This document shows positions 4,975 to 59,445 of a stretch of 64,000 bases of DNA, one piece after another. The translations under genes were made by a program, and so were the position numbers. Where the stretch lies: the NCBI GenBank assembly GCA_018110825.1, contig JAGBCL010000046.1, forward strand, positions 3,064-67,063, read 5' to 3'. The number at the start of each line of letters is the position of its first letter. Within the stretch, counting starts at the first letter, position 1. Source of the DNA: Oscillospiraceae bacterium. Lineage in GTDB: Bacteria > Bacillota > Clostridia > Oscillospirales > Ruminococcaceae. The notes beneath the pieces are model-generated. The model saw only the letters and a program-made list of their open reading frames with translations, was not told where the DNA came from and made no database searches.

Positions 4975-5041
4975 GTTTTATAAATATGATATAATTAAAC
5001 ATAGTATAAATCCATATTTTTCAATTATGAGAGGTATTGTT

Positions 5042-39100: not shown

Positions 39101-40436
39101 CGAGAAATTCAAACCTGATTATGATACAAAATATAAAATGAGTGTTCAGTATAGTGCAGTTGCTGGTACTTGGAAGATTGAAAATGTAAAGGGCAGAGCA
39201 AAAACTAACTATTATGCTTCTCAGACATACGGAACAAGCCGTAAGAACGCATACGAAATCCTTGAAGCAATTCTGAATAATGGAGATTTGCAGGTTAAGG
39301 ACAGAGTTAAGGACGAGTACGGCAATGATGTTCGTGACGCTAACGGTAAGTACGTTCTTGTGGTAAATGATGAGGAAACAAAGGCTGTACGCAGATGTGC
39401 AAATATCATTAAATCAGAGTTTGAGGACTGGATATTCCAGGATCCCGAACGCCGTGAAGCACTGGTGCAGAAATACAACGAGGTATATAACTCAATCAGA
39501 CACAGAGAGTATGATGGTTCACATCTTCATTTTACGGGTATGAACACCGAAATTACTCTTAAAGATCACCAAAAGAACGCAGTCGCAAGAGGTTTGTACG
39601 GCGGTAACTGTCTGCTTGCACACGCCGTTGGTGCGGGCAAGACCTTTGAAATGATTGCTATTGCAATGGAAGGCAAACGCTTGGGATTACATAATAAGTG
39701 CCTGTTCGCAGTACCAAATTCTCTTACGGAGCAGATGGGTAATGACTTCCGAAAACTTTATCCTAACGCTAAAATTCTTGTTGCAACACTGAAAGACTTT
39801 GAAAAGCCAAACAGATTACAGCTTTTCGGTAAAATCGCTGCAAATGATTGGGATGCAGTTATCGTAGGACACAGCCAGTTTGACCGTATGGGACTTTCTC
39901 CCGAACGTGAAAAGTCATATCTTATGGCAGAAGTTGAAAAACTCCGTTATGAACTTGAAATGGCTGCTGCCGAAAATGACGGCAAAAAGAGCTTTACTGT
40001 AAAGCAGATTGAAAAATCCATTGCAAACTATGAGGATAAGCTGGAGAAGCTTAATGACGCACAGGTTAAGGACGGTTTTATTGACTTTGAACAGCTTGGC
40101 TTTGACAAGGTTTTCGTGGACGAAAGCCATATGTACAAGAACCTTGCAACAGCAACAAAAATGCACAATGTTTCAGGACTTGGAACAGGCGGTTCGGCAA
40201 GAGCATTTAATCTGCTGATGAAATCTAAATACCTTGATGAGCTTACGGGCGGACGTGGTTTGACATTTGCCAGTGGCACACCTGTTAGTAACTCAATGAC
40301 AGAGCTGTACACCCTTATGCGTTATCTTCAGGCAGGTATGCTCAAGGACCTGGGTATTAACCATTTTGATGAATGGGCAGCCGATTTCGGTGAGGTAAAG
40401 ACAGATTATGATTACAATTTATTGTGCACCACATAA
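30198..40436 (+). CDS. Giant polyvalent protein (N-terminal part), disrupted: repeat modules + YodL-like domain + N6-adenine methyltransferase + SNF2 helicase N-lobe
   Basis: AGGGAGG RBS. Two N-terminal copies of the module also found in the GGDEF protein. Two EFLKKEFGEDG / DFLKNEYGTGG domains. A YodL-like segment (YEIYQIP...FNIEQPKDFEGHSLSVSDVVVI). Methylase motifs LEPAIGIGNFFG and GNVPFGD. Helicase motifs HAVGAGKTF and VFVDESHMYKN. The last 8 codons and the stop (40413-40436) come from the inserted element. Confidence 0.85.
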   Translation: MTEYINKDFYKAIPPQERHYINLSGNNINDVIDRLNSEGIVFSATISNYKNVVTVHIADRERASAIAAEFTQKKSAELKIIGNTEYKYISDKRYINMDSETALKVAAVLSGDNNSRFSGRIVGDKATITVSGDKNAVAVRRIAENIKNMDLLTELEAAGFERVNINGFDDFVHFKNKATGAIEGFDGLDMVRDMFYDTESEFFHPTAYKIDLASDAYNDVYFISAYDLTTGNVKVPYLKEDGEIVTFSSVTDAVNYGYKNEIPFTNPPEEIAEWRTIDENRENKSISEENAERISYFPMQNGLYPDHIRYNEKDNSFYWVYFNPDADNGDGAFIEKYISESDIYAAYKAREESENEAEGNTAFINYIFENCRENAIDTSTAYFEDYANDYINRPENTAEFYGIGAESIYVEEVTAFITLLEENCPSVVKDKQTNKSKDVLDLNSDNIEIEGYTGTWYVIEAEHIKGKDLFLLESEYYGDEAACLIVDGERNLVMDDVHNGFSDYLERISVPENQMIIPDEDAQEMWTYDFDVYMNGEKLPPFIEGEYERNRQIYAAMVEKENIVSAVKEDVSTYHNADSIATTVFEISESYNGTPVAGEPYYLYLDENYEDYEWQNWKKEYNSYQNTMYSLTHGLAQNVEDYLLNVVSDTLVVAQRERALANVKLVSLFKTEEQKEVTEEAPVTQPDEELSYQEQLFERVNEEYNTFISEIRQESADVLIQSAAAIVDKDRIRLYLKEFTPELTDEQYEALLSRKYPLDEIYEQWVKNGELNGLEDVGIALEETADRILISLGREQPAAPVIEEAPVNNVEYGYINWNGFDKQKYDELVSNVKNHISGTDYAFLFVDKELYNYQLELNIRELGDEWALDYDIYDNEAEEYIHCGGYYESAEFPSFEIFISDIEANVRTAFETREHESKQQEEQKQQFVFMVEQYGETAFFRNDEMTVERLKRECVSAEKPFLYCIEHGSRISGITFAEISQSDNGLAVEVNVDNQEMRVYNNDIAETYSFDEIRKENRRAEIAERLDLENNKLTFSVVSIDGEEEFVMGGFADSDRVTETDEYINFIDSHDVDNVTVRVDFYIVGNGDIESQDMSEEQAAYVQQHLDDVLEIADSLDVQSYDIEPEIDYDIEEDEPSELDKAIAYINDYVSKEFDIEASVVSDENLEHVSLGYTELGDNAEYPFQVEADLKNFAINYYISGNLMRTDKYDFLDELIERELENLEFDYFVSEGNSLLEEMLEKEAELSPVEQAKKYISEYVGKIYDKNEDFEDMKNIPIDHFVIDVLEENVFNMDVDLEAFAVTYKINGDVTLTEQYNSVEEMNEELLSQLNYTTNRATAGRLLKEYKHKQYEEQSKNVEAAVKADIKPDTFIEPEKMPLYTKDYNAAKAANEMDVYIANLKENRACREAIDKAINEHYSDNRLNSSAALESVMQNYTFERIAHVVAARVYHNEWDIRITKDNVEWGKELFAELSSDARQMANQYQLTSHPGLIDLFANTVRKEIDRVREQEQSIPENTVTAESETVKDNYADAPVRKGFTSNTAPTMNMIDHILRCGSNEPYSLERIVRQFQKNKSVEENAEFLKKEFGEDGRGYIINEYSEFNVSAWFNEKGITVAVGETAYPSGSKAHISWEEAANRIKVMLEKGNYCSQEIIDNARNNDIKDIANKLGYLRQDSNIRPFFIPDYFFDGGYYEATDKIAEALHEIAPLDEIAEGLSSFIEMYEKNPEVMRFHYHKPAELLERINDLRAEYNRGKVKFEYPEFKTNVDFAFEPKHFITEDEKDWLLLSGSGVVGGKFRIQGFFNQDHNAKEKADFLKNEYGTGGVGRSWYSSNHDSKGIDLTKGREANKCKAEMKWGEVVKRIDRLVEADVYISPKDIENRIRDAKRDISRGNYADSYDKHVMDNAMKILDEYGIEYEMPQAVIEAKKNTYEIYQIPRGEQYHDLRFLRYAQLEKAGQKPDPKNYEKVYSGNLDDIPYANKLEGIFTVFNIEQPKDFEGHSLSVSDVVVIDDENGKHAYYCDSVGYKDITDMFLNRSTQTIEQPAEEETEKVNAEPAVTIGVIEKYGLEIDFNSIVGVDIESEELTYIGGIDSDGHERKDNYGVNYVTTSYDYADVLYKTIYINGELERYADVTLSDVLASVEEALDERNKVYINHKDGTRELIYTKKLLEAKEKAEQEQQNETAPQRKSGDEVEVGDKFLYKDREYTVTSMLGVYPNDVGVSYFEQSSFRTYQVTSNIDRYELANNGVYLGNPEKEERLAQQTEIYEPRINDVIEYEEQLFNVIDVSNGRVTLQEADSFFGRTITVPETDLITSDSLVVVQGNVKNVEKQNVPEVPTGTNYVITDDNFGVPGGAKARYADNVEAIKTLKQIEAENRTATAEEQQILSKYTGWGAIPQAFDMSNEKWKEEYAELKELLSPEEYSAARHSTMNAHFTSPVITSAIYEGLKNLGFESGKILEPAIGIGNFFGTLPEEMRNSKIYGVELDSLTGRIAQQLYQTADIQIKGFEQTTFADNSFDIAVGNVPFGDYKVNDRKYNDMHLLIHDYFAVKMLDKVRPGGIVAFVTSKGTLDKENPEIRKYLAQRAELLGAIRLPNNAFKANAGTEVTSDIIFLQKRDRPIEINPDEVEWLNKSETADGFSVNNYFVQHPEMVLGKIAEAKHIYGPTENTQVLPVEGADLKQQLAEAVKNIKGNYVVGELEENKDIDEIPAPANSRKYSFYAVDGNLYYREAEDTMRKVEVPKDTLNRAVGLIELRDNVRELLDLQLENSDGTLDGDIAESRKKLNERYDSFVAKYGNVSDRKNAKAMQGDDGYNIVSALEIKDEKGQVTGKSEIFTQNTVKPKLLATHVETAQEALILSVAEKAKVDFEYMTELCGMSKETLVSELKGQIYRLPQEKEKYVTADEYLTGNIRKKLHELENAPEDMDISENRTALENAMPPRVEAKDISVKLGAHWVDPKYIADFIIEKFKPDYDTKYKMSVQYSAVAGTWKIENVKGRAKTNYYASQTYGTSRKNAYEILEAILNNGDLQVKDRVKDEYGNDVRDANGKYVLVVNDEETKAVRRCANIIKSEFEDWIFQDPERREALVQKYNEVYNSIRHREYDGSHLHFTGMNTEITLKDHQKNAVARGLYGGNCLLAHAVGAGKTFEMIAIAMEGKRLGLHNKCLFAVPNSLTEQMGNDFRKLYPNAKILVATLKDFEKPNRLQLFGKIAANDWDAVIVGHSQFDRMGLSPEREKSYLMAEVEKLRYELEMAAAENDGKKSFTVKQIEKSIANYEDKLEKLNDAQVKDGFIDFEQLGFDKVFVDESHMYKNLATATKMHNVSGLGTGGSARAFNLLMKSKYLDELTGGRGLTFASGTPVSNSMTELYTLMRYLQAGMLKDLGINHFDEWAADFGEVKTDYDYNLLCTT

Positions 40437-40570
40437 ATTACAGCAGATTATGACGAACCATTCAAAATTTCGTACTGTGAAATGTTATCGGTATATTGTC
40501 AGGAGGATGCTTTACTCTTCATATGATGAATATGCTTTGATAATATTCGGATGAGGACAAATAATTATAA

Positions 40571-40606
40571 GAGCGAGTTGTCAGTTCATAAAATGGCAGC
40601 TCGCTC
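40571..40606. terminator. Bidirectional stem-loop terminator
   Basis: GAGCGAGTTGTC pairs with GGCAGCTCGCTC (12 bp, two G-U pairs). It is followed by TTTTT on the + strand and preceded by an A/T run, and it lies just downstream of the minus-strand helicase gene. Confidence 0.7.
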
Positions 40607-40615
40607 TTTTTATAA

Positions 40616-43459
40616 TCATCCTATCTCATTTTTTAACAATGCTATGTCCTGACGGTTATCAATGGGTTTGATTCTTCCAAGTATCTTCTGTTCAACGGAT
40701 TTCGACCAATATATTTTTAATCTTTTCTTAGCACGAGTAATTGCTGTATAAAAAATACTGTGAGTGATCATTTCATCTATCTCATCAGTTATAACAATTT
40801 TAACAGAATCATATTCCAATCCTTGTGCTTTATGAATTGAAACAGCATAAGCAATCTGAAAAGGAATGGTTGTTTTGGAAGTTTCATCGTCATCTTCATC
40901 AGTACTTTGGTTTTTGTATACTTCAAATCGAATAATAGAATTTCCTTCACTATTTGTTCCAATGATTATAAAGTTACGCTTCTCCATATTTAATTCAATG
41001 AGGGGTTTATCAAGTTCTATATCAAATTGGATTGATTCATTTGCTTGTCCATCATTTAAAACTCTGAAATCTACTATCTTGGCTTTCATATTATTATGGA
41101 TAATCGGAACTTCATCTGAATTATTGCTGAAGAATAAATCTGCTGAATCATTAAACAATATAGGGTCACCAACTTTATACCTTTGTATACCACGGTATAT
41201 TTCTTTGCCACTATTGTTTTCTTGCATGAAATGATTAATGTTATTTATTCCATATAAACCGCCATAATTCAGACAGAGAATAATTTCGTTATCGGCAGCA
41301 GGCGTAAAAATTGAAGTATCCAGATTTGCTGAGAATTCACCTGCTTGTAATCTATCAAGAACATCACTATCATTTAAATCCCCTTTCATTTTTCTGACGT
41401 TCTCCCATAGGCCTAACAGTTGTTTACTTTCCGTTCTAAATGGCACAGTCAACTCACATACAGATGTTTCGGGAATAAAGAATCGTACAGCGTTAAACCA
41501 ATTACCAAATTCAATAGCCTCTATTTGATATATATCGCCTACCAATACCAAAAGTTTGTATTTTGCAAGACGCAATAATTCTCTCATGTCCTGATTATTA
41601 ACTGTACTACACTCATCAATTATAAGAATGTCATAATCTCTTTTTATATCTTTAGCATATGGATTATTGAATTTGGTGATAGTCATAAAATCGCATTTTG
41701 ATGATGCAGATATTTTTCTTTTAAGATTATTTACTGCTGGATTCGTATGAGCTAAATATAACCGTGAGTAATCCTTAAAAAACGTTGATATATAATTAAT
41801 CAAAGTTGTCTTTCCAGTTCCTGCTGCACCGTAGATTAGTGCAACCTTGGAGTTATCAAACATTTTTATCAAAGCAATTTTTTTCTCGTCAGAAACATCC
41901 GTATGATCTTGAGTCTCTACCCAGTGCTTCACTGTGTTTGAATAATTTTCTATTCCACTAACAGTCAAATTCTTTATAATTTCAATTATAGAGACAGTGT
42001 CATCTTTATAGCTTTCTATAAAGATATAATCATTTTTGATTATCAGCTTGCGTGCCTGCTGTGTTTCGTTGCCATATAGTTTGCTATTATAGATTCTTAC
42101 AAGCTCTTCGATATCATCAAAGTATTTATATTTATGGACGACACTATCTTCATTTCTCTCCAAAGGTGTAAACAAGATTCCTTTTTGTTCAGTATTATTT
42201 CTGATAATCCAAGCTAAAACCTCATGTTCACGTCTGGATACGTCGAAACAATCAAATATATCAGAAATGCTTGGCACATGTTTTTTTAGAGAAGAACAAA
42301 ACGGCATTTCATCAAAAGGAATGCATTTATAATCTAAATAAAGATCAGAGAGCTTAAAATTGCCACCTATATATTCTTTACAATTTCTTTGATAATCCCA
42401 TTTCCAATGTTCCTTGTATTGTGCCTTAATTATTCTATTTGTCATGTGGAATAATAAATATCTAAGTACATTAGCACCAGGACGTTCATTCTTTACAAGA
42501 TCTCTACAAAAATTAAGAATATCAAAGAAAAAATTTGATTTTGAATTTGGGACAATCTGACTGCGCAAACTAATAAAGTCATCATCTGATATATCAAGTA
42601 TTTCAGATAAGTTCCCACCTGTTTTGGTCAAGTATTGAGATAAGTTTTGCTGTTCAGTTCTTGAAAGTTTTGGCGCATTCTTGTATATAATCTTTGCAAA
42701 ATTATCATATTCACATGGACGAATGTTTACTTCCCAATTAACAATAACTCTTATAGGCATTGTCTTGTCAAAGATTTCGATAAAATTATTAGCTATGGCA
42801 AGTTTAACAGCATAATAATCTGATAATTCAATATCGGTGAATGCAATTATTCGATCTGTTTTGCTTGCTTTATCATTTGCTGGTATGAATGCAACCTCAT
42901 AGTACACTTTGTTATTTACAAAAAATGGTTTGATTGATTGAATATAAAATCGGTCTAACCTAAAGCCATCTTTTATTGGAGCACAGTAAGAATCTACTTT
43001 GCTTGCAATCTTTTCGTAGTATTCTTTATAATTATCGTCTACTTCAATTGGAAATTTTTCGAGATTGTGAAGAACCTCCATTGAATAATTATCATGAAGG
43101 TAATTCTTTATTCTTAAAAGATACTCATAGTATTTGAGCATTAAGCGAGTTGAATTTTCTTCTGCTAAAGTTCGATGAGATATTGATACCTGTAAGTAAC
43201 TATGAAATCGTGCTATATGTTTTAATTTCATCTGACTTTTAACGTACTTCACTGCTTTTTTAACATTTTCATGAGAATCTTCAATGTCATTTCCGTCAGC
43301 ATAAATTTTTAAAATAATATGTTCAACAAAATGACGAAGCTGAGAAAGAATATCCTGAGATATTTCTCCTACAGAAGTTTTTTCTACACTATCAATATGA
43401 CGACAGATGACTTTATCGCTATTCATGATCTGCTCGTCAATACGTGAAGGTATATTCAT
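40616..43459 (-). CDS. SF1B (RecD/AAA_30 + UvrD_C-like) helicase with a ~530-aa uncharacterised N-terminal region
   Basis: Walker A YGAAGTGKTT, Walker B ILIIDECS, motif III VLVGDIYQ, and C-terminal AVSIHKAQGLEYDSV and YTAITRAKKRL. An AAGGAGAA RBS is present. Confidence 0.8.
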   Translation of the reverse strand: MNIPSRIDEQIMNSDKVICRHIDSVEKTSVGEISQDILSQLRHFVEHIILKIYADGNDIEDSHENVKKAVKYVKSQMKLKHIARFHSYLQVSISHRTLAEENSTRLMLKYYEYLLRIKNYLHDNYSMEVLHNLEKFPIEVDDNYKEYYEKIASKVDSYCAPIKDGFRLDRFYIQSIKPFFVNNKVYYEVAFIPANDKASKTDRIIAFTDIELSDYYAVKLAIANNFIEIFDKTMPIRVIVNWEVNIRPCEYDNFAKIIYKNAPKLSRTEQQNLSQYLTKTGGNLSEILDISDDDFISLRSQIVPNSKSNFFFDILNFCRDLVKNERPGANVLRYLLFHMTNRIIKAQYKEHWKWDYQRNCKEYIGGNFKLSDLYLDYKCIPFDEMPFCSSLKKHVPSISDIFDCFDVSRREHEVLAWIIRNNTEQKGILFTPLERNEDSVVHKYKYFDDIEELVRIYNSKLYGNETQQARKLIIKNDYIFIESYKDDTVSIIEIIKNLTVSGIENYSNTVKHWVETQDHTDVSDEKKIALIKMFDNSKVALIYGAAGTGKTTLINYISTFFKDYSRLYLAHTNPAVNNLKRKISASSKCDFMTITKFNNPYAKDIKRDYDILIIDECSTVNNQDMRELLRLAKYKLLVLVGDIYQIEAIEFGNWFNAVRFFIPETSVCELTVPFRTESKQLLGLWENVRKMKGDLNDSDVLDRLQAGEFSANLDTSIFTPAADNEIILCLNYGGLYGINNINHFMQENNSGKEIYRGIQRYKVGDPILFNDSADLFFSNNSDEVPIIHNNMKAKIVDFRVLNDGQANESIQFDIELDKPLIELNMEKRNFIIIGTNSEGNSIIRFEVYKNQSTDEDDDETSKTTIPFQIAYAVSIHKAQGLEYDSVKIVITDEIDEMITHSIFYTAITRAKKRLKIYWSKSVEQKILGRIKPIDNRQDIALLKNEIG

Positions 43460-43663
43460 ATTTATCTATTCTCCTTTCAAGATTTAGAATCTGTTTTTTA
43501 AAGAGCTACAAGTATTTTTTTACATACAGCTCTTAATTATAATGAATCTTTGCTTAGCAATTCATACGGTTGCTCGTAATGACATCCTGTACTTTTGATA
43601 GAACTCGGAATTAGGTTCCTAAAAGGAGCGAACCTGAGGATTTATTCTATCTACTATATGTTA

Positions 43664-44968
43664 TTATAAAGGTAATTCAACATCAGCTATTACCCAACCA
43701 TTATCTTCATATAAATCAAAAATTCCATTAACTTTTTCAATCTCACTCAAAACATTTTTAAGCCCGATACCATGATATTTTTCATCTGATTTTGATGTTT
43801 TTGGTAAATTATCAGAAGGCAATACTTTTATAGCGACCTTATTTTGGATAGTTAATCGGATATTTTTTTCATCACTGATAATCGACAAGCGAATTTCTTT
43901 TGTGTCCTCTTTCAGTTCTGCTTCAATCGCATTATCAATAAGATTTCCGAATATTATGCATAAAAGAAAATCATCAATTTCCGGCAAATCAGTCTGCAGA
44001 TAACACTTTAGATCAATACCTTCCTTCTTACAAACTGTTTTCTTTACATTCAACATTGCATCAAGTGCAGGATTGCTTGTTTGTGTTATATCAATAACAT
44101 TATCAATGCTTTTCTGCATTTTTTCAATGTATTGTTGTATCGATAAATAATCGTTGTTATCAGCATATTGTTTTATTATCAAAAGATGATTATTCATATC
44201 ATGGCGCAGAGATCGTATAGAATCATTCCATTCAAGCATTTCTTTCAGCTTTTTCTCATCATCACGAAGACGTGTTTCCAACATTATACGATTTTGTTCT
44301 GAAATATTCTTTTTTGAAATTTCTGCTGCAATATAAATAAACAAAACTATTATTGCGGATAAACAAAAAATTATTATAGTAGCATATGTTCTTGTCACCG
44401 CATCATCAAGAAGCATTTTTTCTATAATTACTCCTATAATTATCGCAAGAAGGAACACTGTGATTGCACTGATACTTTGCCCGATATGTAGTGAATAATT
44501 ATTTTTAGTTATTATTTTGCTCATAGTCATAAGCAGTGCAGCCAAAGCAAACTTTGATAGAAATAGTAAAAAAATTCTGGCTGGATTGCGCATAAGCAGA
44601 ACTTCCGAGTAGCTGTTATCCAAAACCGTACTTGAACATGAAAGAATAATTATATTAATCAAAAAAACTGTAATTATTGACACAAGGGATAATATTGCTT
44701 GTGTCCACCATTTACCTTTCAGCATAGCTCTGGAAAAGATGAATAGAAGCAGAGTATATGATACTGAAAATATATGTTCATGGCTAAAAAGAACATTAAT
44801 TTTATCCCAAAACAAAGCATTGGTAATTATAAGAATAATAAAACCAATAGTTCCGATAATTCTTTCTATTTTTGACATTGATTTATATTGCAAAGAAGCA
44901 ATAAGAAATACACATAAAATGATACTTTCTATTCCGGTAGCAATATATTCACTGACTGTATATATCAA
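43664..44968 (-). CDS. AgrC-like (HPK10, GHKL) sensor histidine kinase
   Basis: Six to seven N-terminal TM helices, H-box SLRHDMNNHL, N-box GNLIDNAIEA and G-box HGIGLKNV. A 4-nt overlap couples it to the response-regulator gene. Confidence 0.85.
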   Translation of the reverse strand: MIYTVSEYIATGIESIILCVFLIASLQYKSMSKIERIIGTIGFIILIITNALFWDKINVLFSHEHIFSVSYTLLLFIFSRAMLKGKWWTQAILSLVSIITVFLINIIILSCSSTVLDNSYSEVLLMRNPARIFLLFLSKFALAALLMTMSKIITKNNYSLHIGQSISAITVFLLAIIIGVIIEKMLLDDAVTRTYATIIIFCLSAIIVLFIYIAAEISKKNISEQNRIMLETRLRDDEKKLKEMLEWNDSIRSLRHDMNNHLLIIKQYADNNDYLSIQQYIEKMQKSIDNVIDITQTSNPALDAMLNVKKTVCKKEGIDLKCYLQTDLPEIDDFLLCIIFGNLIDNAIEAELKEDTKEIRLSIISDEKNIRLTIQNKVAIKVLPSDNLPKTSKSDEKYHGIGLKNVLSEIEKVNGIFDLYEDNGWVIADVELPL

Positions 44969-45678
44969 ATCAATAACCTCCTTCTTGCTTTAGCATATGC
45001 TTCTCGTACCGATTGCATTTTTCTTCTGCTGACGTAAAGCACTGTTTCATTCGGAAGTATAATTTTGTCATTATCTATTTTAATAATAGTTGTATTGACT
45101 ATTGTACCTGAATTTATATAAATGAAATCTTTGAATTGAGACTGATCCATAAAGAATGAAAGAGTGTTTCGTGTAGTAATAATACTTCCGTCTTTCATAT
45201 GTATAAGAATGTTATGGTTATTGCTCTCCAAATATTGTATGTCATGAACAAGTACCAAATATTCTTTTCCACCGTTTTTTCGCAGTTCAGTTACTAATAC
45301 TGTTGCTGTCTCCTTCTCTATTTCTTTTTTTAAGGTTTCATATGCAAATTTCAACTCATTTTCGAGATTTCTTTTACGAACAAATCCTACAGCGTGGTAA
45401 CGAAAAGCATGAAATACAAGATCATCCTTTCCTGTAACAAAAACTATACGTACATTGCTGTTGCAATCATATAATAAATTACTAAGCTCAAATCCATTCA
45501 TTGCAGGCATATCTATATCAAGAAAACATGCATCATACTTTTGATCAGAAAAGTTTGATAATAACACAGAAGGGTCGCTGAAAGCTTCAATAACGGCACT
45601 GTTATCTGAAATTTCTTCTAAAGTACTAACAACTTTTTTGAGTACCGGTAATTCGTCATCCAAAACAGCGAAAATCAT
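44965..45678 (-). CDS. LytTR-family response regulator (AgrA-like)
   Basis: Receiver domain (FLDIDMP, VFVTG) plus a C-terminal LytTR region (IQYLESNNHNILIHMKDG...). Confidence 0.85.
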   Translation of the reverse strand: MIFAVLDDELPVLKKVVSTLEEISDNSAVIEAFSDPSVLLSNFSDQKYDACFLDIDMPAMNGFELSNLLYDCNSNVRIVFVTGKDDLVFHAFRYHAVGFVRKRNLENELKFAYETLKKEIEKETATVLVTELRKNGGKEYLVLVHDIQYLESNNHNILIHMKDGSIITTRNTLSFFMDQSQFKDFIYINSGTIVNTTIIKIDNDKIILPNETVLYVSRRKMQSVREAYAKARRRLLI

Positions 45679-45761
45679 TTAATCACCCCATTTGTACTAA
45701 TTACATTATAACAGAATTATATTAATAAAACAATAGCACTTACAAAGTATTATAAACATTT

Positions 45762-45831
45762 TTACCAATTACGACATATAATTACCAGTTACGACACAAA
45801 TATTGATTTAACTGATTTTGAATGCTATAAT
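45762..45831 (+). promoter_or_regulatory. LytTR-type direct repeats plus a sigma-A-like promoter upstream of agrB
   Basis: TTACCAATTACGACA (45762-45776) and TTACCAGTTACGACA (45782-45796) have a 20-nt start-to-start spacing. They are followed by TTGATT (45803-45808), 17 nt, TATAAT (45826-45831). Confidence 0.65.
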
Positions 45832-45857
45832 TTCAAAAAACAAAAGGTGAAAAGATT

Positions 45858-46457
45858 ATGATTGCTGAGTTATCATCGCAAATTGTTGCAACCCTTTTAA
45901 ACAATAAAATTATAACATATAAACAGAAGGATGTATACCAGTACGGGTTTGAGATATTGATTTCATCCGTTATAACCTTTCTTATTGTATTGGTTTGTGG
46001 ATGTATTTTTAATTGTATTATTCCTTCTTTTATATTTTTTGTATTATTTGTAATTCTCCGCTCTATATGCGGAGGATATCATGCGTCAAATTATTTAAGC
46101 TGTAATTTAATTTTTGGATTTGTTACTATAGGTGTACTAATGTCGTACAAATATATAAATATTGAAGTGTTCTCTGATTTACATTATTTTATATGTATGC
46201 TTTCATTTATTTGTGCAATAATTTATTCTCCTATTGAAAACGAAAATAAACATTTAACAACAGCTCAAAAGAAGAAATTTCGTATTCTTGGAACGGTTTT
46301 GGTATTGATGTTTTCATTAGTATCTACTGTTATTAAGATAAAACTACAATCATCGTATACCATATTAATGGATATGACTCTTTTGGTTGTGTCAATTTTT
46401 ATGGTTGTTGTGAAACTAAAGAAGGGAGGGAACAAAACAGAGATGTCAGGTTTGTGA
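45858..46457 (+). CDS. agrB: AgrB-family membrane peptidase
   Basis: Polytopic membrane protein carrying the LRSICGGYHASNYLSC motif, which contains the catalytic His/Cys context of AgrB. Confidence 0.8.
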   Translation: MIAELSSQIVATLLNNKIITYKQKDVYQYGFEILISSVITFLIVLVCGCIFNCIIPSFIFFVLFVILRSICGGYHASNYLSCNLIFGFVTIGVLMSYKYINIEVFSDLHYFICMLSFICAIIYSPIENENKHLTTAQKKKFRILGTVLVLMFSLVSTVIKIKLQSSYTILMDMTLLVVSIFMVVVKLKKGGNKTEMSGL

Positions 46458-46546
46458 CGATGTTATAGATTCTTCCACGTTTAATGTTGAGGATCACAGT
46501 GCTTGGAACTAGAACTAATCATCAAATTTAATATAATTTAAATTCA

Positions 46547-46576
46547 GCAGTAACAGGAAAGATTTTCTGTTACTGC
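46547..46576 (+). terminator. Perfect 10-bp stem-loop after agrB (weak T-tract)
   Basis: GCAGTAACAG, 10-nt loop, CTGTTACTGC. The sequence that follows is CGAATATTAT, so this is not a canonical T-run. Confidence 0.4.
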
Positions 46577-46596
46577 CGAATATTATAGGTGAAGTT

Positions 46597-47838
46597 ATGA
46601 AGAAAAGTATTTTAATCAGTATGGTATTATCTGTTTTTATTTTATCTTCCTGTGAAGTGGGAGAAGAGACTTTATCTGAAAATCAAAATAAGCAAAACGA
46701 GATTATTCTTACAAGAATAACTGAATCTCACGATTTTCTCTATACTTTAATTGATAATTACAACAGCGAAAGTGATGTTCAAATCACCTTAAAAGAATAT
46801 CCTTCGTCTGAGCAGCTTACAATGGCTATTCTTGGAGGAGAACCAATAGATATTGTTTATTCTGGAAAAACGTTAGATGTTTCACCTTTAGTAAGCAAAG
46901 GCTTTTTTATAGATTTTTCTCAATACATAAATGAAGATGAATATGTAAACTCAGTCATTGATGCGATGAAGCAGGATGGTAAGCTATATGAGCTGCCTTA
47001 TGATTTTGATGTTGAATCAGCTATTGCAAAATCCGATTTATGGGGTGAAGATACAGACACTACCTTCTCTCATATTACCGAAAAATCTACAAATTTGGGT
47101 TGCTGGATTCCGTTCGATTTTACAATGGATTCCTATGGGTTTGTAAGTTTTATTAAATCAGAGTTTATTGATCTGGAAAACCGCACCTGTAATTTTAACA
47201 GCAAAGAGTTTGAAGAATTTATCCTGTTTATGAAGGAGTATTATTCTTCGGTTAAGAACTTATCAAATGAACAACTTTATAATGAATTCAAAAATGATAA
47301 TATGCTTATGCTTGCAACAGGATTTTCAAGTTTTGATCAATTGGATTATCTGGAAAGAGATATTGGTGCAAAAGTCAAATTTGTGGGTTTCCCTTCTGAA
47401 CAGAATAATTATCACATAGCAGTTCCACGTTCGACGTTCTCAGTTGCCCAAAACTCATTAAATAAAGATACTGCTGTTGATTTTGTTAAGTATTGCGTAT
47501 CTTACGATGCATATATTACAACAAATCCTGATGGTTCTGAAATGATTGCCCATAGTTTTAGTTTGCCGATAAACGTAAAAGCACTTGAATTTTGTTATAA
47601 CCTCTCAATACAAAGTAATATCTATGATATTGATGAAACAATGCTTGTTTCCAACAGGGAACAGCTTTTATCTCAGATAAATTCAGTTTCGGCAGCAGCA
47701 CGTTTATCTGATGATAATATCAAGGATATTCTTAATGATGAACTTTCAGCGTTTTTTGCCGGTGATAAGGATGTAGGAACAGTTAGTGAGAATATTCAGA
47801 GCAGATGTATGCTTTTGTTGTGGGAGCAGTATGAGTAA
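46597..47838 (+). CDS. Extracellular solute-binding lipoprotein (ABC SBP family 1-like), orphan
   Basis: Lipobox VFILSSC. Size and sequence character fit a sugar/oligomer-type SBP. No permease or ATPase gene lies nearby. Confidence 0.55.
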   Translation: MKKSILISMVLSVFILSSCEVGEETLSENQNKQNEIILTRITESHDFLYTLIDNYNSESDVQITLKEYPSSEQLTMAILGGEPIDIVYSGKTLDVSPLVSKGFFIDFSQYINEDEYVNSVIDAMKQDGKLYELPYDFDVESAIAKSDLWGEDTDTTFSHITEKSTNLGCWIPFDFTMDSYGFVSFIKSEFIDLENRTCNFNSKEFEEFILFMKEYYSSVKNLSNEQLYNEFKNDNMLMLATGFSSFDQLDYLERDIGAKVKFVGFPSEQNNYHIAVPRSTFSVAQNSLNKDTAVDFVKYCVSYDAYITTNPDGSEMIAHSFSLPINVKALEFCYNLSIQSNIYDIDETMLVSNREQLLSQINSVSAAARLSDDNIKDILNDELSAFFAGDKDVGTVSENIQSRCMLLLWEQYE

Positions 47839-47924
47839 AAAAAGATATAAATTCTAAAGATTGTGTGTTATCATACTAATGAAAATATATTATATGCCAA
47901 AAATACTGAGGAGGAATCAAGCTT

Positions 47925-48779
47925 ATGTCAAATACAAAAGAAAACAAGTTGATGAAATTATGTGCTACACTTATCATATGTCTACTATGTATTGTAAATA
48001 TATATAGTTTGCCTGTTTCTGCAGTTGCAAGTGATCTTCCTGTCATTCGCAGCGTTAATGGATGGAGCGTTCCAGCTGGTTCTACAAAGCAAAGCAGTAC
48101 AGGAGTATATCTATATCCTGGAGATATTGTATATTTTGATTTTACATATACTCCATCACATACAAGCATGTCATTTGGATTGTTGACACCTTCGAATACC
48201 TTTAAATTGTTTAATACTGCAGGAAGCGGAATTGCTAAGAGTACCATTACAATTACAGAAGAAGGGGTGTATAAGTTCAGAGTTAGAAATAATTCATCAT
48301 CTTATGATGCAACTATAAACGGAAAATATTATACAGGTTGTTCATATCCTTTTAGAAGTCCTTATGTGGCAAAAAAAATATCTACTTCTTATACCTCATC
48401 TCATTATGGGTTAGATATTGTTGCAACTACTCCTGGTGCTATTGAAGGTTATCCTATTTATTCTATTCAGAAAGGAACTGTTGAAGTTGCTGAATTTTCA
48501 GCATCAGCAGGATATTATGTAGTTATAATTGGGGATAATGGTTATACAGCCCGATATTTACATATGCAAGACACTCTAGAAGTGAATGCAGGAGATAACG
48601 TTACATATACAACATTATTAGGCTATGTTGGAAATAGCGGAATTTCAACAGGACCTCATTTACATATTGATGTAAATACAGTTAATGGAACTGCAGGAGA
48701 ATCTTCAGGTGGTACAATTAATTACAATACAACTATTGATCCCGAATCTTTATTTCCACAAATCAGCTTTACTTATTAA
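47925..48779 (+). CDS. Secreted M23 (LytM/lysostaphin-type) metallopeptidase
   Basis: Signal peptide. The HxxxD motif (SHYGLDIV) and HxH motif (GPHLHIDV) lie in the C-terminal half. The N-terminal ~140 aa are unassigned. Confidence 0.8.
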   Translation: MSNTKENKLMKLCATLIICLLCIVNIYSLPVSAVASDLPVIRSVNGWSVPAGSTKQSSTGVYLYPGDIVYFDFTYTPSHTSMSFGLLTPSNTFKLFNTAGSGIAKSTITITEEGVYKFRVRNNSSSYDATINGKYYTGCSYPFRSPYVAKKISTSYTSSHYGLDIVATTPGAIEGYPIYSIQKGTVEVAEFSASAGYYVVIIGDNGYTARYLHMQDTLEVNAGDNVTYTTLLGYVGNSGISTGPHLHIDVNTVNGTAGESSGGTINYNTTIDPESLFPQISFTY

Positions 48780-48800
48780 TTAAAACAGGAGGGAATTAAC

Positions 48801-49655
48801 ATGGAAAAAAGAATAAAAACAGTTATAGCCATCGCTATGGCATTAATTGCAATGTCTTCACTTACAGCTTGCAACAGTATGGAGGAAGTTACTACACATT
48901 TAACAACGTCAAATATTGCAGATAACACTCAAAAGTCAACCGAAATAAAAAACACAATAGATGTCAATATGGAAATGCCTCAGCCCTTTGAGATGGGAAT
49001 TGATGCAGGTGGGGACGAAAATGATGGCTTTTATTTACCGTTTAATTCAATTATAAATGGTATTCCTGTGGAACTTATAAAGCTGAGGGATAAAGCTGAA
49101 GTAGATAATTGGATTAATTCGTTCCCCTCAGTATCTTATGCTCCGTCAAATATTAGCGAGTATGCAAATATCTATTCATTTATAACAGATTTTTCTATTA
49201 CAAAAGATGAAGCAGAAACAGCTCTCAACTACTATCTTGATAATAATTTAATATCATATGAACAATTGAATCTTATTTATTCCGGAGACAAAGAATTGAT
49301 AACCAAAACATTTGCCTCTAAATATTCTATTGTGATTGGAGAAAGTATTTATTGTCCTAACTGGATTTATACACATTCTATTGATGATTATTCAGATGCA
49401 GGGATAACAACTGATAAAATCGACATGATGGCATCTATCTACTCTGATTTTACTTTTACTGAAGAAGCACGAAAAGCATTTGAAGGAAAATTGTCATTGT
49501 ATTCAAATAAAACAATTAACATAAAATCAAAAGCATCTAAAACAAAATATGTTGATAAAGATGATTCTTTATGTGAGGTAATTGAGGATGAAATGGAAGA
49601 TGTCGCTGACGAAGATACAGTTGTTGATGATGTAGTGGAGGTAGTACAAGAATAA
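48801..49655 (+). CDS. Putative lipoprotein with an acidic C-terminus
   Basis: Lipobox SSLTAC. The C-terminal tail is rich in D/E/V. No motif recognised. Confidence 0.55.
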   Translation: MEKRIKTVIAIAMALIAMSSLTACNSMEEVTTHLTTSNIADNTQKSTEIKNTIDVNMEMPQPFEMGIDAGGDENDGFYLPFNSIINGIPVELIKLRDKAEVDNWINSFPSVSYAPSNISEYANIYSFITDFSITKDEAETALNYYLDNNLISYEQLNLIYSGDKELITKTFASKYSIVIGESIYCPNWIYTHSIDDYSDAGITTDKIDMMASIYSDFTFTEEARKAFEGKLSLYSNKTINIKSKASKTKYVDKDDSLCEVIEDEMEDVADEDTVVDDVVEVVQE

Positions 49656-49699
49656 TGGCTTTCTTTTGATTTAAATAAATCAAATAGAGCATTTACCGT

Positions 49700-49830
49700 C
49701 ATGCAATTTATATTCAATATATATTAGATTGCCGTAGTCCGATTTTGTCCCCACAAAATCAATGCTTGCTATAATCAACCCACATTCTTCCGAAATGAAT
49801 ACGCCGCCTATTCTCATATTTAGAAAAATC
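49700..49830 (-). other. oriT-like region, inverted second copy (hairpin GATTTTGT-CCCC-ACAAAATC at 49741-49760)
   Basis: The reverse complement aligns over ~100 nt with 52225-52310, the region upstream of the element's mobC, including AGCAAGCATTGATTTTGT....ACAAAATCGG. Confidence 0.6.
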
Positions 49831-49885
49831 TTCTCATAAGTTGAAACCCACACAAATACGTTATTACAACCGAATATACAAGAAA

Positions 49886-49920
49886 GAAGCTTCAAAGGCT
49901 GTTAAAACCTTTGAAGCTTC
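49886..49920 (+). terminator. Perfect 13-bp stem-loop followed by a T-rich tract
   Basis: GAAGCTTCAAAGG, 9-nt loop, CCTTTGAAGCTTC, then TTTAATTTTG. Confidence 0.65.
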
Positions 49921-49969
49921 TTTAATTTTGCCTATAAATATATAAAAAAGACATCGTAATTTACATTTT

Positions 49970-50146
49970 GATGTCAAAATCAAAGTCAATCAGTCTGCAA
50001 TGCAGTAAAATGACGTCATAATCCGAAAAATGACGCATATCAGACGTCAATTTCCTGTCAAAAAGACGTCAAACCGAGAAATTTCAGCTGTGATAGAATA
50101 GAAATCAAGATAAGGAACGTCAAATCAATCGGATACGATGTCACTT
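49970..50146 (+). repeat. Array of direct GTCAA-core iterons (parC-like centromere/operator)
   Basis: Seven same-orientation GTCAA-core copies of (A/G)(A/T)(C/G)GTCAA(A/T)(A/T), plus GTCA-only or degenerate copies (GACGTCATAATC, GATGTCACTT, GACGCATATC). Examples: GATGTCAAAATC, AAAGTCAATC, GACGTCAATTTC, GACGTCAAACC, AACGTCAAATC. The array lies immediately upstream of tnpW-parM-parR. Confidence 0.65.
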
Positions 50147-50204
50147 ATCAAAAAGTACATTTCCGGCCGGACTTGTAACTTTCAAATAATACAGGAGGCA
50201 GAAA

Positions 50205-50381
50205 ATGAATGAAAGAACATACAATCCACTCGGAACTGAACACAGCATAACTATCGGTAAAACAACATTTACGGTAAATTCTTTTGCTGATACAAATTCA
50301 ACTGTTACAGCAGAAGAGCTTATCATCAGAATGTTAAAATCAAAGGTTAAAGATACGTCAAAGGAGGAAAAAACAGCATGA
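50205..50381 (+). CDS. TnpW-like small transposon protein (58 aa, not in the ORF track)
   Basis: AGGAGG RBS. The pattern ITIGKTTFTVNSF...TAEELIIRMLKSKV matches the IG-TT(Y/F)-V ... (I/L)(L/I)R(L/M)(I/L) pattern of Clostridial TnpW proteins. An ATGA overlap couples it to parM. Confidence 0.5.
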   Translation: MNERTYNPLGTEHSITIGKTTFTVNSFADTNSTVTAEELIIRMLKSKVKDTSKEEKTA

Positions 50382-51307
50382 TTCCATATAATAATTCTAT
50401 CATTATTCCCGTTGATACAGGATACGGAAATATCAAAAACTCTCTGCATTCTTTTCCGACAGGAATTACGGAATACAGCACAAAGCCTGCTTTTGAGGGC
50501 AGGATTCTTCATATCGGAGATAAGTATTACCGCATCGGCGAAGGTCATAAGGAATATATCCCCGATAAAACCATCGACGAGGAGTTTCGTCTGTTGACCA
50601 TTGCTGCAATCTGTGACGAGTGCCGCAGCTGCGGATATTATGAAGGCAATATCTACCTTGCGGTAGGTTGCCCTACTGCAATGCTTGCGGCTCAGCGTGA
50701 AAGCACAAGAGGGTATTTTCTCAGTAATCCTCATATCGACTGCGAGTATAATAACAAGCATTTTGTGCTTGAAATTGTCGGCTGTTTTGTTTATCCGCAG
50801 GGATATGCGGCGGTCACGGAGCACCTTCATAATATGACAGGTGTTAATATGATTATCGACATCGGAAACGGTACTGCGAATATTCTTCAGATCAATAACA
50901 AGCGTGTAATTGAAGATAAATGCGTAACAGAAAAGCTGGGTGTAAATCAGTATATGATTGCTGTGCAGAAAGCGGTTATGGCTCGGTTCGGCAAGAAAAT
51001 TGATACTGAAATTGTTGAGCAGTTTATCAGAAACGGGAATACAGACGCTCCCGATGAATACAGAAAGATTTTCATTGATGAAGCAAAGAAATATTGCAAA
51101 AAGCTCTTTGATGCGCTTTCCCGTTGCGAGTATGATCCCGACTTTATGAAGCTGTATATATGCGGCGGTGGCGGTCGGCTTATCAGACAGTTCAGCAGAT
51201 ATAATTCCGACAAAACTGTTTTCATTGATGATATTTGCGCTGCTGCAAAGGGTTATCAGAAGTTTACATTAAAGACGCTTAAATCCCTTGAAAAGAGGTC
51301 TGAATAA
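50378..51307 (+). CDS. parM: ParM/StbA-family actin-like segregation ATPase
   Basis: Phosphate-1 motif IPVDTGYGNIKN and phosphate-2 motif IIDIGNGTANI. YICGGGG is an adenosine-motif-like segment. Confidence 0.8.
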   Translation: MIPYNNSIIIPVDTGYGNIKNSLHSFPTGITEYSTKPAFEGRILHIGDKYYRIGEGHKEYIPDKTIDEEFRLLTIAAICDECRSCGYYEGNIYLAVGCPTAMLAAQRESTRGYFLSNPHIDCEYNNKHFVLEIVGCFVYPQGYAAVTEHLHNMTGVNMIIDIGNGTANILQINNKRVIEDKCVTEKLGVNQYMIAVQKAVMARFGKKIDTEIVEQFIRNGNTDAPDEYRKIFIDEAKKYCKKLFDALSRCEYDPDFMKLYICGGGGRLIRQFSRYNSDKTVFIDDICAAAKGYQKFTLKTLKSLEKRSE

Positions 51308-51636
51308 TGAAGCAAATCAAAAGAATCACACTCAGACTGTCACTGGATAAACAGAAGGATAAAGCAGTTGCGGACTTTCTTTCGCAACTTGATAAGTCTG
51401 AATATCGTACAGTAAATAGTGCAATAAAAACAATCCTGTATTCATTTATTAAAAACGGTATTTCAGAAAAATCCGATACAAGTGAAATAATTTCGGTAAT
51501 CAGATCAACCATTGAAACGGAATTGACACGACTATTTTCAGAATTCGTATCGCATAATACACATAATGTTATTTCAAAAGATAAACCTAAAATATCCTCC
51601 GACGACGATATTGATATGAGCTTTATAGGAGAATAA
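51307..51636 (+). CDS. ParR-like RHH adaptor (by position and N-terminal strand-helix pattern)
   Basis: 109 aa. An ATGA-type overlap couples it to the parM stop. The N-terminal KRITLRLSLDKQKDKAVADFL is RHH-like. Confidence 0.5.
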   Translation: MKQIKRITLRLSLDKQKDKAVADFLSQLDKSEYRTVNSAIKTILYSFIKNGISEKSDTSEIISVIRSTIETELTRLFSEFVSHNTHNVISKDKPKISSDDDIDMSFIGE

Positions 51637-51638
51637 AA

Positions 51639-52187
51639 ATGATGACAGTCAAGGAGCTTTGCAGGAAATATAATCTGAAATATCAGACAGTTTACAGGAA
51701 AATTTCCGCTCATAAAAAAAACGAGCTTGCAGGACACATCATAAAAGAAAATGGCGAAAGCCTTGCCCTTGATGATTATGCAGTGGATTTTCTTACGCCT
51801 TTTAATGTCAAGGTCATTCAGGCGGTTGAGGAATGTGAAGCAGTTATCAGAGAAAACAGCGATTTGAAGGATAAGCTGTATGCTGCTGAATGTAATCTCC
51901 GACGGGCAGAAAAAAGAGTATCTGATATTACTGCCGAAAATGAAAAGCTGAACGCCGAAATTAATGTGCTTACAGATGAATTATCAGATAAAGGCAAAAT
52001 AATCAAAGAGCTTGAATTTCAGTGCAATAATTACCGTCAGAAAATATCCGAACTTGAACAGGGTGCGGATAATTCTGAGTGCCGTATCTCTGAACTTGAA
52101 AAAATAATTTCAACCTTGGCAGAAGAAAACAGACTTCTTACCGAAAAGTATGAAGCTGTCCCCAAAATATTCAGAAAAAGTCAGTAG
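51639..52187 (+). CDS. HTH + long coiled-coil protein
   Basis: The N-terminal MTVKELCRKYNLKYQTVYRKI is excisionase/MerR-like HTH in character. The remainder is heptad-rich. Confidence 0.45.
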   Translation: MMTVKELCRKYNLKYQTVYRKISAHKKNELAGHIIKENGESLALDDYAVDFLTPFNVKVIQAVEECEAVIRENSDLKDKLYAAECNLRRAEKRVSDITAENEKLNAEINVLTDELSDKGKIIKELEFQCNNYRQKISELEQGADNSECRISELEKIISTLAEENRLLTEKYEAVPKIFRKSQ

Positions 52188-52224
52188 AAAAAGCTATTCT
52201 CTGCGGTAGAAAAATATTCGCATT

Positions 52225-52310
52225 ATGAGAAATGCAGAGTATTTTCATCGCAGAGAATATAGCATGATTTTAGCAAGCATTGATTTTGTTGCCACAAAAT
52301 CGGTAACGGA
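52225..52310 (+). other. oriT-like region upstream of the element's mobC (hairpin GATTTTGT-TGCC-ACAAAATC at 52282-52301)
   Basis: An inverted repeat sits directly 5' of the mobC-relaxase pair. It is homologous to the inverted copy at 49700-49830. Confidence 0.6.
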
Positions 52311-52320
52311 AAGGAGCATT

Positions 52321-52650
52321 ATGAACAGAGATAATTTCATAAAAATAAGAGTCACGGCAGATGAAATGTCTGTTATAAAAAAGAGGGCGGAAAATGCAGG
52401 AATGAATGTTAGCAAGTTTATCAGAACGCTTGTTCTCAACGGTAAAATAATTCTGTATGACACAGAAAATATTTACCGTTTTAATCAGCTTATGCGTTCT
52501 GTGGGAACAAATATAAATCAGATTGCGGCAGTTGCAAATTCGGAGAAAAGTGTGTATAAAAATGATATTGATTCACTCCGCAGAGAAATAGAGAAAATAT
52601 CGGCTGATTTTAAAAGCTGTATTTCTCCGCTTAAAAGCAACGAAATATAA
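52321..52650 (+). CDS. mobC: MobC-type relaxosome accessory protein (element copy)
   Basis: The ATG at 52321 has an AAAGGAG RBS (the track start at 52225 reads through the oriT-like repeat). VTADEMSVIKKRAENAGMNVSKFIR and INQIAAVAN are MobC motifs. Confidence 0.8.
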   Translation: MNRDNFIKIRVTADEMSVIKKRAENAGMNVSKFIRTLVLNGKIILYDTENIYRFNQLMRSVGTNINQIAAVANSEKSVYKNDIDSLRREIEKISADFKSCISPLKSNEI

Positions 52651-56480: not shown

Positions 56481-56549
56481 AATTTTCCCTTTCCCGATTT
56501 TTTATTTCAGTATAGCATAAATTTACACAAATTACAACAGAAAATATTG

Positions 56550-56567
56550 TGCGAAAACGTTTTCGCA
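56550..56567. promoter_or_regulatory. Perfect 18-bp palindrome TGCGAAAACGTTTTCGCA
   Basis: It lies in the divergent intergenic region between the STAND gene and the recombinase gene. Confidence 0.5.
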
Positions 56568-56573
56568 AATCTA

Positions 56574-56623
56574 TTGAATTCTTGCGGATTATGATGTATA
56601 ATGTATATAGTCATAATCTGCTG
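56574..56623 (+). promoter_or_regulatory. Recombinase promoter embraced by an inverted repeat of the GATTATGA motif
   Basis: TTGAAT (56574-56579), 17 nt, TATAAT (56597-56602). The arms are GCGGATTATGA (56584-56594) and TCATAATCTGC (56611-56621). Confidence 0.6.
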
Positions 56624-56636
56624 TTTGGAAAGGTAG

Positions 56637-58286
<1,650 letters not shown>

Positions 58287-58290
58287 AAAA

Positions 58291-58331
58291 ATGAACACAT
58301 ATCATTTTGGAGCACTATGATATGTGTTCAT
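58291..58331. repeat. 15-bp perfect inverted repeat straddling the right junction of the insertion
   Basis: ATGAACACATATCAT (58291-58305, element side) and ATGATATGTGTTCAT (58317-58331, overlapping TATGAT and the resumed host ORF), separated by an 11-nt spacer. Confidence 0.85.
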
Positions 58332-59343: not shown

Positions 59344-59397
59344 CCTTTCAGGGAACATCAAAATCAAACCCAGCCGTGATATATCAAACAAAACAAC

Positions 59398-59435
59398 GCC
59401 CATTCTCAAGGTTGTAATTGCCTTTGAGAATGGGC
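59398..59435. terminator. Bidirectional stem-loop terminator downstream of the YhcG-like gene
   Basis: GCCCATTCTCAAGG pairs with CCTTTGAGAATGGGC (one bulge). T-rich tracts lie on both strands. Confidence 0.6.
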
Positions 59436-59445
59436 GTAGTATTTT

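Follow-up and report, generated by a model that had tools for sequence, protein, structure and literature searches.

What does a solitary helicase gene do at the very end of a mobilizable element? The question is raised by a 64,000-nucleotide (nt) stretch of the genome of a gut bacterium of the Oscillospiraceae (assembly GCA_018110825.1, contig JAGBCL010000046.1, positions 3,064 to 67,063; this whole stretch is hereafter the window), in which an intact open reading frame (ORF) on the minus strand encodes, from an ATG start, a superfamily 1B (SF1B) helicase of 947 amino acids (aa). An annotation made earlier from the letters of the window alone (the sequence-only reading) considered the context of this gene typical of a single-gene defence or anti-plasmid helicase but gave equal weight to a role of the product in replication or transfer of the excised element. 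We find the former to be the better explanation: the protein is probably (we put the probability at roughly 0.6) an intact, stand-alone member of the PDC-S53 family, acting as a defence or anti-invader helicase and carried by the element as swappable cargo. This interpretation draws on a full-length match to the PDC-S53 profile, on defence genes that neighbor 16 of 25 related loci, on a patchy distribution, and on a variable cargo position low in guanine plus cytosine (GC). The context argued by the sequence-only reading therefore finds computational support, with the reservation that "defence" is, for PDC-S53, a candidate label.

Against the PADLOC profiles, the protein matches PDLC05035 (PDC-S53) with an E value of 0 and 1150.6 bits, residues 6-945 aligning with profile positions 3-893 of 900; by this match it is a full-length member of a candidate family for single-gene phage defence. 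The next best family, PDC-S68, reaches 89.8 bits over the helicase part alone, and the other PADLOC matches (type IV RecD, GajB, and MkoA) are likewise weaker and partial, confined to the helicase or to the stretch immediately ahead of it. In length class and single-gene organization nothing sets the window protein apart from its family; its gene sits on a serine-recombinase mobilizable element and not inside a restriction-modification (RM) operon. The PDC systems are 145 candidates that were predicted from their embedding in type I RM, BREX, and DISARM loci (bioRxiv 10.1101/2024.01.29.577857).

A word-indexed protein search with the helicase scored 7999 candidates, of which 4169 match at E ≤ 1e-5. 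Identity to the query is 65%-92% in the best 120, and 118 of them cover 93%-100% of it; the two shorter ones measure 875 aa (P0109) and 760 aa (P0118, 80% cover). When residues 1-530 were used alone in a HMMER scan, 856 clusters (formed at 50% identity) were recovered at E ≤ 0.001, 303 of them at E ≤ 1e-30. Among the best 150 clusters, the longest of which does not exceed 1001 aa, 89 are at least 850 aa long and 87 of these carry a Walker A motif, so that the architecture is uniform over hundreds of sequence clusters and the N-terminal module is encountered essentially only in fusion with this helicase. The remaining 61 are shorter, with Walker A in 23, and may be cut by contig ends. Five cluster representatives of 539-564 aa (P0124, P0125, P0135, P0153, and P0175) comprise the N-terminal module only and end near the Walker A region; these could be split forms or, again, genes cut by contig ends. 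The N-terminal query is matched in only nine of 401 genomes of the same family (the window's genome counted) and in none of three other genomes of the same genus, whereas a true RecD2 is found in 19 of 21 relatives, the window's genome included. This contrast marks the helicase gene as accessory, not housekeeping.

The gene neighborhoods of homologs, which the sequence-only reading had proposed as a check, favor a defensive setting. Taking one genome per species, we assembled 26 loci whose helicases are 61%-89% identical to the window protein; most belong to Lachnospiraceae, Ruminococcus, Oscillospiraceae, and other Clostridia. Flanks are present in 25 of them (all but L027), and at most three ORFs per side were scanned there, 113 in total. 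A clear defence neighbor is present in 16 of the 25 (Table 1), and no locus lies in a replication or conjugation operon: relaxase, Rep, and type IV secretion genes are all absent from the 113 flanking ORFs. In the type I RM loci the helicase mostly stands just after hsdR, on the same strand. No gene nearby is a constant partner of the helicase across these 25; a short antisense ORF is seen repeatedly, but only in four loci that are close relatives.

Five of these loci (L004, L005, L006, L012, and L023, from entries titled Ruminococcus, Porcipelethomonas, and Bacillota) share a block, ∼0.1-5 kb past the helicase, in which an ATPase_2/DUF234 protein (PDC-S27) is accompanied by a GGGtGRT protein. 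It is preceded in all but L005 by an antisense ORF of 125-143 aa without a Pfam family. Upstream of the helicase, three of the five have type I RM and L005 has an AAA_16 protein; L006 has no upstream flank.

Within the window, the gene stands at the left end of a discrete element that interrupts, in frame, the SNF2 region of a 3412-aa polyvalent gene belonging to a conjugative element. By tblastn, the end of the left gene fragment and ORF 58307-59479 fall next to each other, in one frame, on homologs of 3339-3728 aa that are uninterrupted. Where the window breaks off with ...KTDY on the left and resumes with YELKPE on the right, the best of these homologs (L029) has GEVKTDYELKPE, and this comparison places the crossover within the two five-base cores given in Table 1. 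In X4, an independent public run, a contig of 28,486 nt matches 40404-46426 and 46431-58333 at ∼98%-99% identity, with unlike sequence beyond both ends; the element is thus a discrete unit that either uses more than one insertion site or enters diverged targets. Joints linking 40404-40411 to 58331-58335 were listed in neither direction, but the runs consist of contigs only and are uninformative on excision. Nor was an RNA run holding the sequence listed among 21 runs, which speaks neither for nor against expression. These borders bear out the cargo position beside an att junction that the sequence-only reading had assigned to the helicase; the right border, set there at 58321, is ∼12 nt short.

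The right half of the element (∼49.7-58.3 kb, 35%-40% GC) holds a ParM-like gene, two small ORFs, NikA, a relaxase, a 765-aa gene, and the serine recombinase. The left half (40.4-49.7 kb) has ∼30% GC, against 41.3% for the genome, and holds the helicase, an agr-like set (GHKL kinase, LytTR regulator, and AgrB), a solute-binding protein, an M23 peptidase, and an unknown gene. Among the 401 genomes, the closest backbone found is that of G068:C13, which is 71% identical in nucleotides over window positions 49741-56531 and retains everything from ParM through the 765-aa gene at 57%-82% aa identity. None of the left-half genes, the helicase included, occurs there over the 20 kb compared, which reach the contig end ∼4 kb past ParM. 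Since the whole block is missing from this relative, the helicase is swappable cargo.

Turning to the protein itself, all five motifs quoted in the sequence-only reading are present in the translation (GAAGTGKTT at aa 544-552, IIDECS at 613-618, VGDIYQ at 640-645, SIHKAQGLEYD at 874-884, and TAITRAKK at 905-912). Residues K550, D615, D642, R675, K877, and R909 are invariant across 91 aligned relatives and, with every ATPase and helicase motif (I-VI) conserved, the motor is intact. The SF1 helicase domains of Pfam are confined to aa 524-925 (AAA_30, 1.2e-18; Viral_helicase1, 2.7e-18; UvrD_C_2, 7.8e-11), but the homology to RecD2, a helicase that acts in repair and replication restart, begins well ahead of them. 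By hhalign against a reference alignment of six true RecD2 proteins (from the window's genome and its relatives), aa 408-928 match RecD2 residues 202-705 with a probability of 99.8% (E = 5.8e-30). The family-specific part is therefore aa 1-407, and not the 530 residues that had been described as an N-terminal region without a namable motif, although that part indeed has no credible Pfam domain. In Foldseek the C-terminal part finds RecD2 (3gpl, E = 2.1e-21) and also RecD, Pif1, and Dda. The genome's own RecD2 contains SH3_13 in Pfam, and the equivalent SH3-like 2B domain is enlarged in the helicase; what had been noted as an insertion between the two RecA lobes is this enlarged domain, which RecD2 also has.

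Is the protein then simply a RecD2? Its score against the RecD2 equivalog TIGR01448 is 112.1 bits, below the cut-off of 500, while the genome's true RecD2, encoded elsewhere, scores 831.7. The core shared with RecD2 (TIGR01448; Deinococcus radiodurans structures 3gpl and 3e1s) runs from the pre-Walker-A domain to the C terminus, including the SH3-like 2B domain. Ahead of it, RecD2 has the modules OB_YrrC, HHH_5, and HHH_RecD2, which the PDC-S53 helicase lacks at the sequence level, with 407 unrelated residues instead; OB_YrrC and HHH_RecD2 are present in the genome's RecD2 and were not detected in the helicase, even at E ≤ 10. We also considered whether aa 160-407 are a diverged copy of OB_YrrC and the HHH modules, for which we found no support, since the hhalign match covers nothing ahead of RecD2 residue 202. 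Residues 160-247 do form an OB fold, but one without detectable sequence homology.

The structure of residues 1-530, whose prediction and fold search the sequence-only reading had called for, was modeled confidently by AlphaFold2 using family alignments (predicted local distance difference test [pLDDT], 91.6; predicted template modeling score [pTM], 0.87); the full-length model (pLDDT 88.6, pTM 0.86) indicates one compact multi-domain body. The family-specific part divides into a helical bundle, the OB-fold barrel, which is probably a surface for binding single-stranded nucleic acid, and a region of ∼160 residues (aa 248-407) that has neither a structural nor a sequence match and was barely covered by the fold searches. 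The N-terminal residues include positions that are invariant or nearly so among the 91 sequences (R42, E46, S94, H95, Y110, Y172, Y187, E188, K200, Y216, R247, E250, G328, N330, Y334, Q347, F382, P386, H394, and N458).

Searches with this part of the protein returned little. Pfam gave only noise for three N-terminal pieces at E ≤ 10. Foldseek with the N-terminal model found nothing in the PDB at E ≤ 0.001 and no match among the viral structures of BFVD, where the best hint was a "RecD2 helix-hairpin-helix" protein at E = 0.014; the VIA-align structure comparison barely covered aa 248-530. An ESM Atlas feature search with aa 1-420 gave one unnamed cluster at 0.78, below lead level, and a homodimer prediction for aa 1-250 scored 0.37 against a mark of 0.42, which is evidence neither for nor against a dimer. 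Neither Pfam, Foldseek, nor VIA-align identified a nuclease domain, although the fold searches barely covered aa 248-407.

The best structural matches of the bundle are HEPN domains, with weak scores. The catalytic Rx4-6H motif of the HEPN superfamily (HepT/DUF86 toxins, the AbiA C-terminal domain, Csx1, and LsoA), which belongs at the start of the last helix, is absent from the PDC-S53 helicase: H95 is conserved in 89 of 91 sequences, but no arginine stands 4-6 residues upstream of it, and the residue five positions earlier is glutamine in 66 of the 91. Pfam finds no HEPN match in the N-terminal pieces at E ≤ 10, and hhalign with HepT (PF01934, the one HEPN family tried) gives a probability of 0.2% (E = 0.3), a negative result for profile similarity to that family.

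Proteins in which an accessory module is joined to a helicase motor are familiar from phage defence. Nhi, a nuclease fused to an SF1 helicase, is a defence protein. The layout of PDC-S53 also recalls AbiO, in which one polypeptide carries an accessory module at its N terminus and an SF1-type helicase at its C terminus and which a review describes as PD-(D/E)XK plus SF1B helicase (PMC13064643). Both of these carry a nuclease, whereas no PD-(D/E)XK or other nuclease domain was found in the PDC-S53 helicase, and neither appears in the set of 15 PADLOC families that match at E ≤ 1. Nor is the protein a GajB of the Gabija system: instead of a full-length match to this UvrD-type (SF1A) helicase there are short local ones only, the best with 34.6 bits at aa 537-597, and the window contains no GajA.

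The gene has its own ribosome-binding site, as the sequence-only reading had it, and gaps of 204 nt (to the histidine-kinase gene upstream) and 179 nt on its two sides, with hairpins in between (Table 1). Its stop codon lies ∼205 nt inward of the left junction of the element. Terminators had been postulated on both sides. The strong hairpin after the stop codon, a region that includes an inverted repeat at 40561-40616, is likely the terminator of the gene; the upstream hairpin is weaker, and a consensus terminator scan called neither of the two.

Table 1. The helicase gene, its protein domains and its carrier element (window coordinates), and defence-type genes beside its relatives (locus identifiers)
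Feature	Position or loci	Strand	Remarks
Serine-recombinase mobilizable element, ∼17.93 kb	40404..58333	.	Helicase at left end; junction cores TATGA 40407-40411 and TACGA 58331-58335
Helicase ORF (PDC-S53 family)	40616..43459	-	Stop codon 40616-40618
Ribosome-binding site AAAGGAGA	43470..43477	-	10 nt ahead of helicase ATG; read from sequence
Hairpin directly 3′ of helicase stop	40545..40625	-	-23.1 kcal/mol, z -4.95, 0/200 shuffles as good
Weaker hairpin between histidine-kinase and helicase genes	43501..43534	-	Fold of 43500-43580: -16.1 kcal/mol, z -2.1, 6/200 shuffles as good
Four-helix up-down bundle, aa 4-127	43079..43450	-	HEPN-like at most in fold; conserved R42, E46, S94, H95, R105, Y110
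OB-fold barrel, aa 160-247	42719..42982	-	Conserved Y172, Y187, K200, R203, Y216
Helical sub-domain and small mixed sub-domain, aa 248-407	42239..42718	-	Invariant F382, P386; conserved D383, H394, D400
RecD2-type SF1B helicase core, aa 408-947	40619..42238	-	Pre-Walker-A domain, 1A, 2A, enlarged SH3-like 2B at ∼aa 786-865; from hhalign, Foldseek, and Pfam
Walker A GAAGTGKT, aa 544-551	41807..41830	-	K550 invariant
Type I RM neighbor	L004, L008, L012, L013, L018, L023, L026		7 loci
Gabija neighbor	L002
PDC-S01 neighbor	L003
PDC-S27 neighbor	L004, L005, L006, L012, L023
Fic-type PDC-S04 and C5 methylase neighbors	L009
GmrSD and PDC-S11 neighbors	L015
TIR protein and Schlafen-like protein neighbors	L018
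Type II RM neighbor	L019
IetA, mREase IV, and PDC-S07 neighbors	L020
YhcG (PDC-S02) neighbor	L022

Several features of the carrier element and its surroundings are recorded here in their own right. The agr-like set (43664-46457) lies directly upstream of the helicase, with the LytTR regulator and the GHKL kinase on the minus strand while AgrB is encoded divergently on the plus strand and is not followed there by an AgrD-like ORF of at least 20 aa. This region varies among public contigs: X4 has 429 other letters at 46426-46431, and a further form, X8, joins 45854 to 46596 and thus has no AgrB. The 765-aa backbone gene (54183-56480, minus strand; 69% aa identity in G068) has no PADLOC match and only sub-threshold matches to STAND-type NTPases (AAA_16, nSTAND1/3/6) and TPR repeats; it may be another sensor-type defence or regulatory protein. 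An inverted repeat, perfect over 15 nt (ATGAACACATATCAT ... ATGATATGTGTTCAT, 11-nt spacing), occupies 58291-58331, between the stop codon of the recombinase and the right crossover core, and could be a binding site of the recombinase or a terminator. At the other end, the 10-nt word CAGATTATGA occupies 40402-40411 and contains the left crossover core; a second copy lies 42 nt inside the element, at 40444-40453.

The conjugative element into which this element is inserted occupies the window from position 1 to ∼40400 and encodes MobC/relaxase, ParA/ParB, GmrSD, a coupling protein, PrgI, VirB4, and topoisomerase III, in addition to the interrupted polyvalent protein with its SNF2 domain. It has defence-type cargo of its own in the GmrSD-family enzyme (4964-6811, plus strand; PADLOC Orf5/HEC-06, 3.5e-90) and in a YhcG PD-(D/E)XK protein (59446-60621, minus strand; PDC-S02, 6.9e-137) just past the end of the giant gene.

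A number of points weigh against defence as the function of the helicase. PDC-S53 is a candidate label, and its source preprint calls the PDCs untested (bioRxiv 10.1101/2024.01.29.577857); the name "PDC-S53" occurs in none of the papers searched, although the supplementary tables of the preprint may define it more fully. A study of Streptococcus thermophilus that tested some PADLOC candidates lists, in its accessible part, other PDC-S numbers and not this one. The neighborhood evidence is partly circular, since embedding in defence systems is how PDC-S53 was defined in the first place. Of the seven type I RM loci, five have helicases that are 81%-89% identical and come from related genomes of Ruminococcus/Oscillospiraceae type, so they are not independent, and the window helicase is not adjacent to any RM system. 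Two of the 25 loci are ambiguous (L010 and L017), their PADLOC matches resembling a tRNA methyltransferase and an ABC transporter, with L017 also holding a SIR2_2 protein (Pfam). Seven more (L007, L011, L014, L016, L021, L024, and L025) have no defence match, and several of these carry integrases, a MazE/PIN pair, or a PLD fragment. Finally, the element, which has a MobA/VirD2-type relaxase without a helicase domain and no recognizable Rep, may conceivably use the gene in its own DNA processing.

How well do other explanations fare? One of them is a variant of the defence reading in which the protein is an abortive-infection toxin: the bundle would be a divergent HEPN RNase, switched on when the helicase meets phage DNA, that kills or arrests the cell. 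We consider this rather unlikely given the missing Rx4-6H motif and the negative comparison with the HepT profile. Direct interference with invader DNA is somewhat more likely than such an RNase because the canonical HEPN catalytic motif is missing.

A second possibility is a DNA-maintenance helicase outside defence, that is, a RecD2 paralog that aids the stability of mobile elements or RM islands, for instance in that it processes restriction breaks, assists recombination, or counters a host defence. The RecD2-like core (Foldseek, hhalign) would suit such a role, and the seven of 25 loci beside type I RM operons could mean cooperation with RM rather than independent immunity. However, the gene is also found away from RM, in this window as well as next to Gabija, GmrSD, IetA, and other systems; a canonical RecD2 is already encoded in the genome; and the 407 N-terminal residues replace the OB_YrrC and HHH modules with no detectable homology to them. 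This possibility ranks slightly behind the abortive-infection toxin, as distinctly unlikely.

The replication or transfer role that had been put on an equal footing with defence, in which the helicase would unwind in trans the excised circle nicked by NikA/relaxase, for rolling-circle replication or mobilization, and so stand in for the helicase fused to the relaxase in TraI/TraA-type proteins, is unlikely and the least probable of these explanations: although the element has a ParM-like gene, NikA, and a relaxase of its own with no recognizable Rep or relaxase-fused helicase, and although the protein shows a weak, sub-threshold similarity to the helicase part of TraA_Ti (69.4 bits against a cut-off of 590.45; TraI, 20.2 against 2212; no Relaxase domain in Pfam), none of the 25 loci of relatives has a relaxase, Rep, or type IV secretion neighbor among the flanking ORFs scanned, the G068:C13 backbone keeps ParM, NikA, the relaxase, and the 765-aa gene with no helicase homolog in the 20 kb compared, the helicase block is poorer in GC than the backbone, and the gene is convergent with the element end, with ∼9 kb of unrelated cargo between it and the mob genes.

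If the PDC-S53 helicase is indeed a defence or anti-invader protein, a plausible course of action can be outlined. The OB fold and the motor would load onto single-stranded DNA that offers a free 5′ end, a form typical of invaders and found, for example, in phage replication or recombination intermediates or in the strand that enters in conjugation. The motor would then translocate 5′ to 3′, the polarity established for RecD2, Dda, and Pif1, and in doing so might dismantle the replication intermediates of the invader or displace proteins from them. The conserved polar pocket of the bundle (R42, E46, S94, H95, R105, and Y110) would be the sensor or effector that gives the protein its specificity for invaders.

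Taken further, PDC-S53 may represent a nuclease-free, single-protein form of immunity, in which a RecD2-type 5′-to-3′ motor is steered by a degenerate HEPN-like bundle and an OB fold onto invader single-stranded DNA, the conjugating strand included; alternatively, aa 248-407 could be a nuclease fold not yet described. Even counted jointly, we hold these two ideas to be doubtful. Were immunity of the nuclease-free kind to operate, a mobilizable element could use it to keep competing plasmids, conjugative elements, and phages out of the cell that it shares with its carrier element.

The helicase is a further member of a candidate family that is already catalogued, and the family itself is not new. 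What is added here is the correct extent of the unexplained region (407 aa), now resolved into a bundle, an OB fold, and a part without a match, together with an evaluation of HEPN membership, which had a negative outcome, and base-level borders for the carrier element; beyond these points, a defence-annotation pipeline would already flag the gene. The locus is a convenient test case, with an intact gene and no RM partner, on a discrete 17.9-kb element whose borders are known to a few bases. If PDC-S53 is confirmed as a defence family, it would constitute one more single-protein helicase immunity module, widespread in gut Clostridia, and its mechanism would need a new explanation, as the N-terminal module matches no known sensor or effector.

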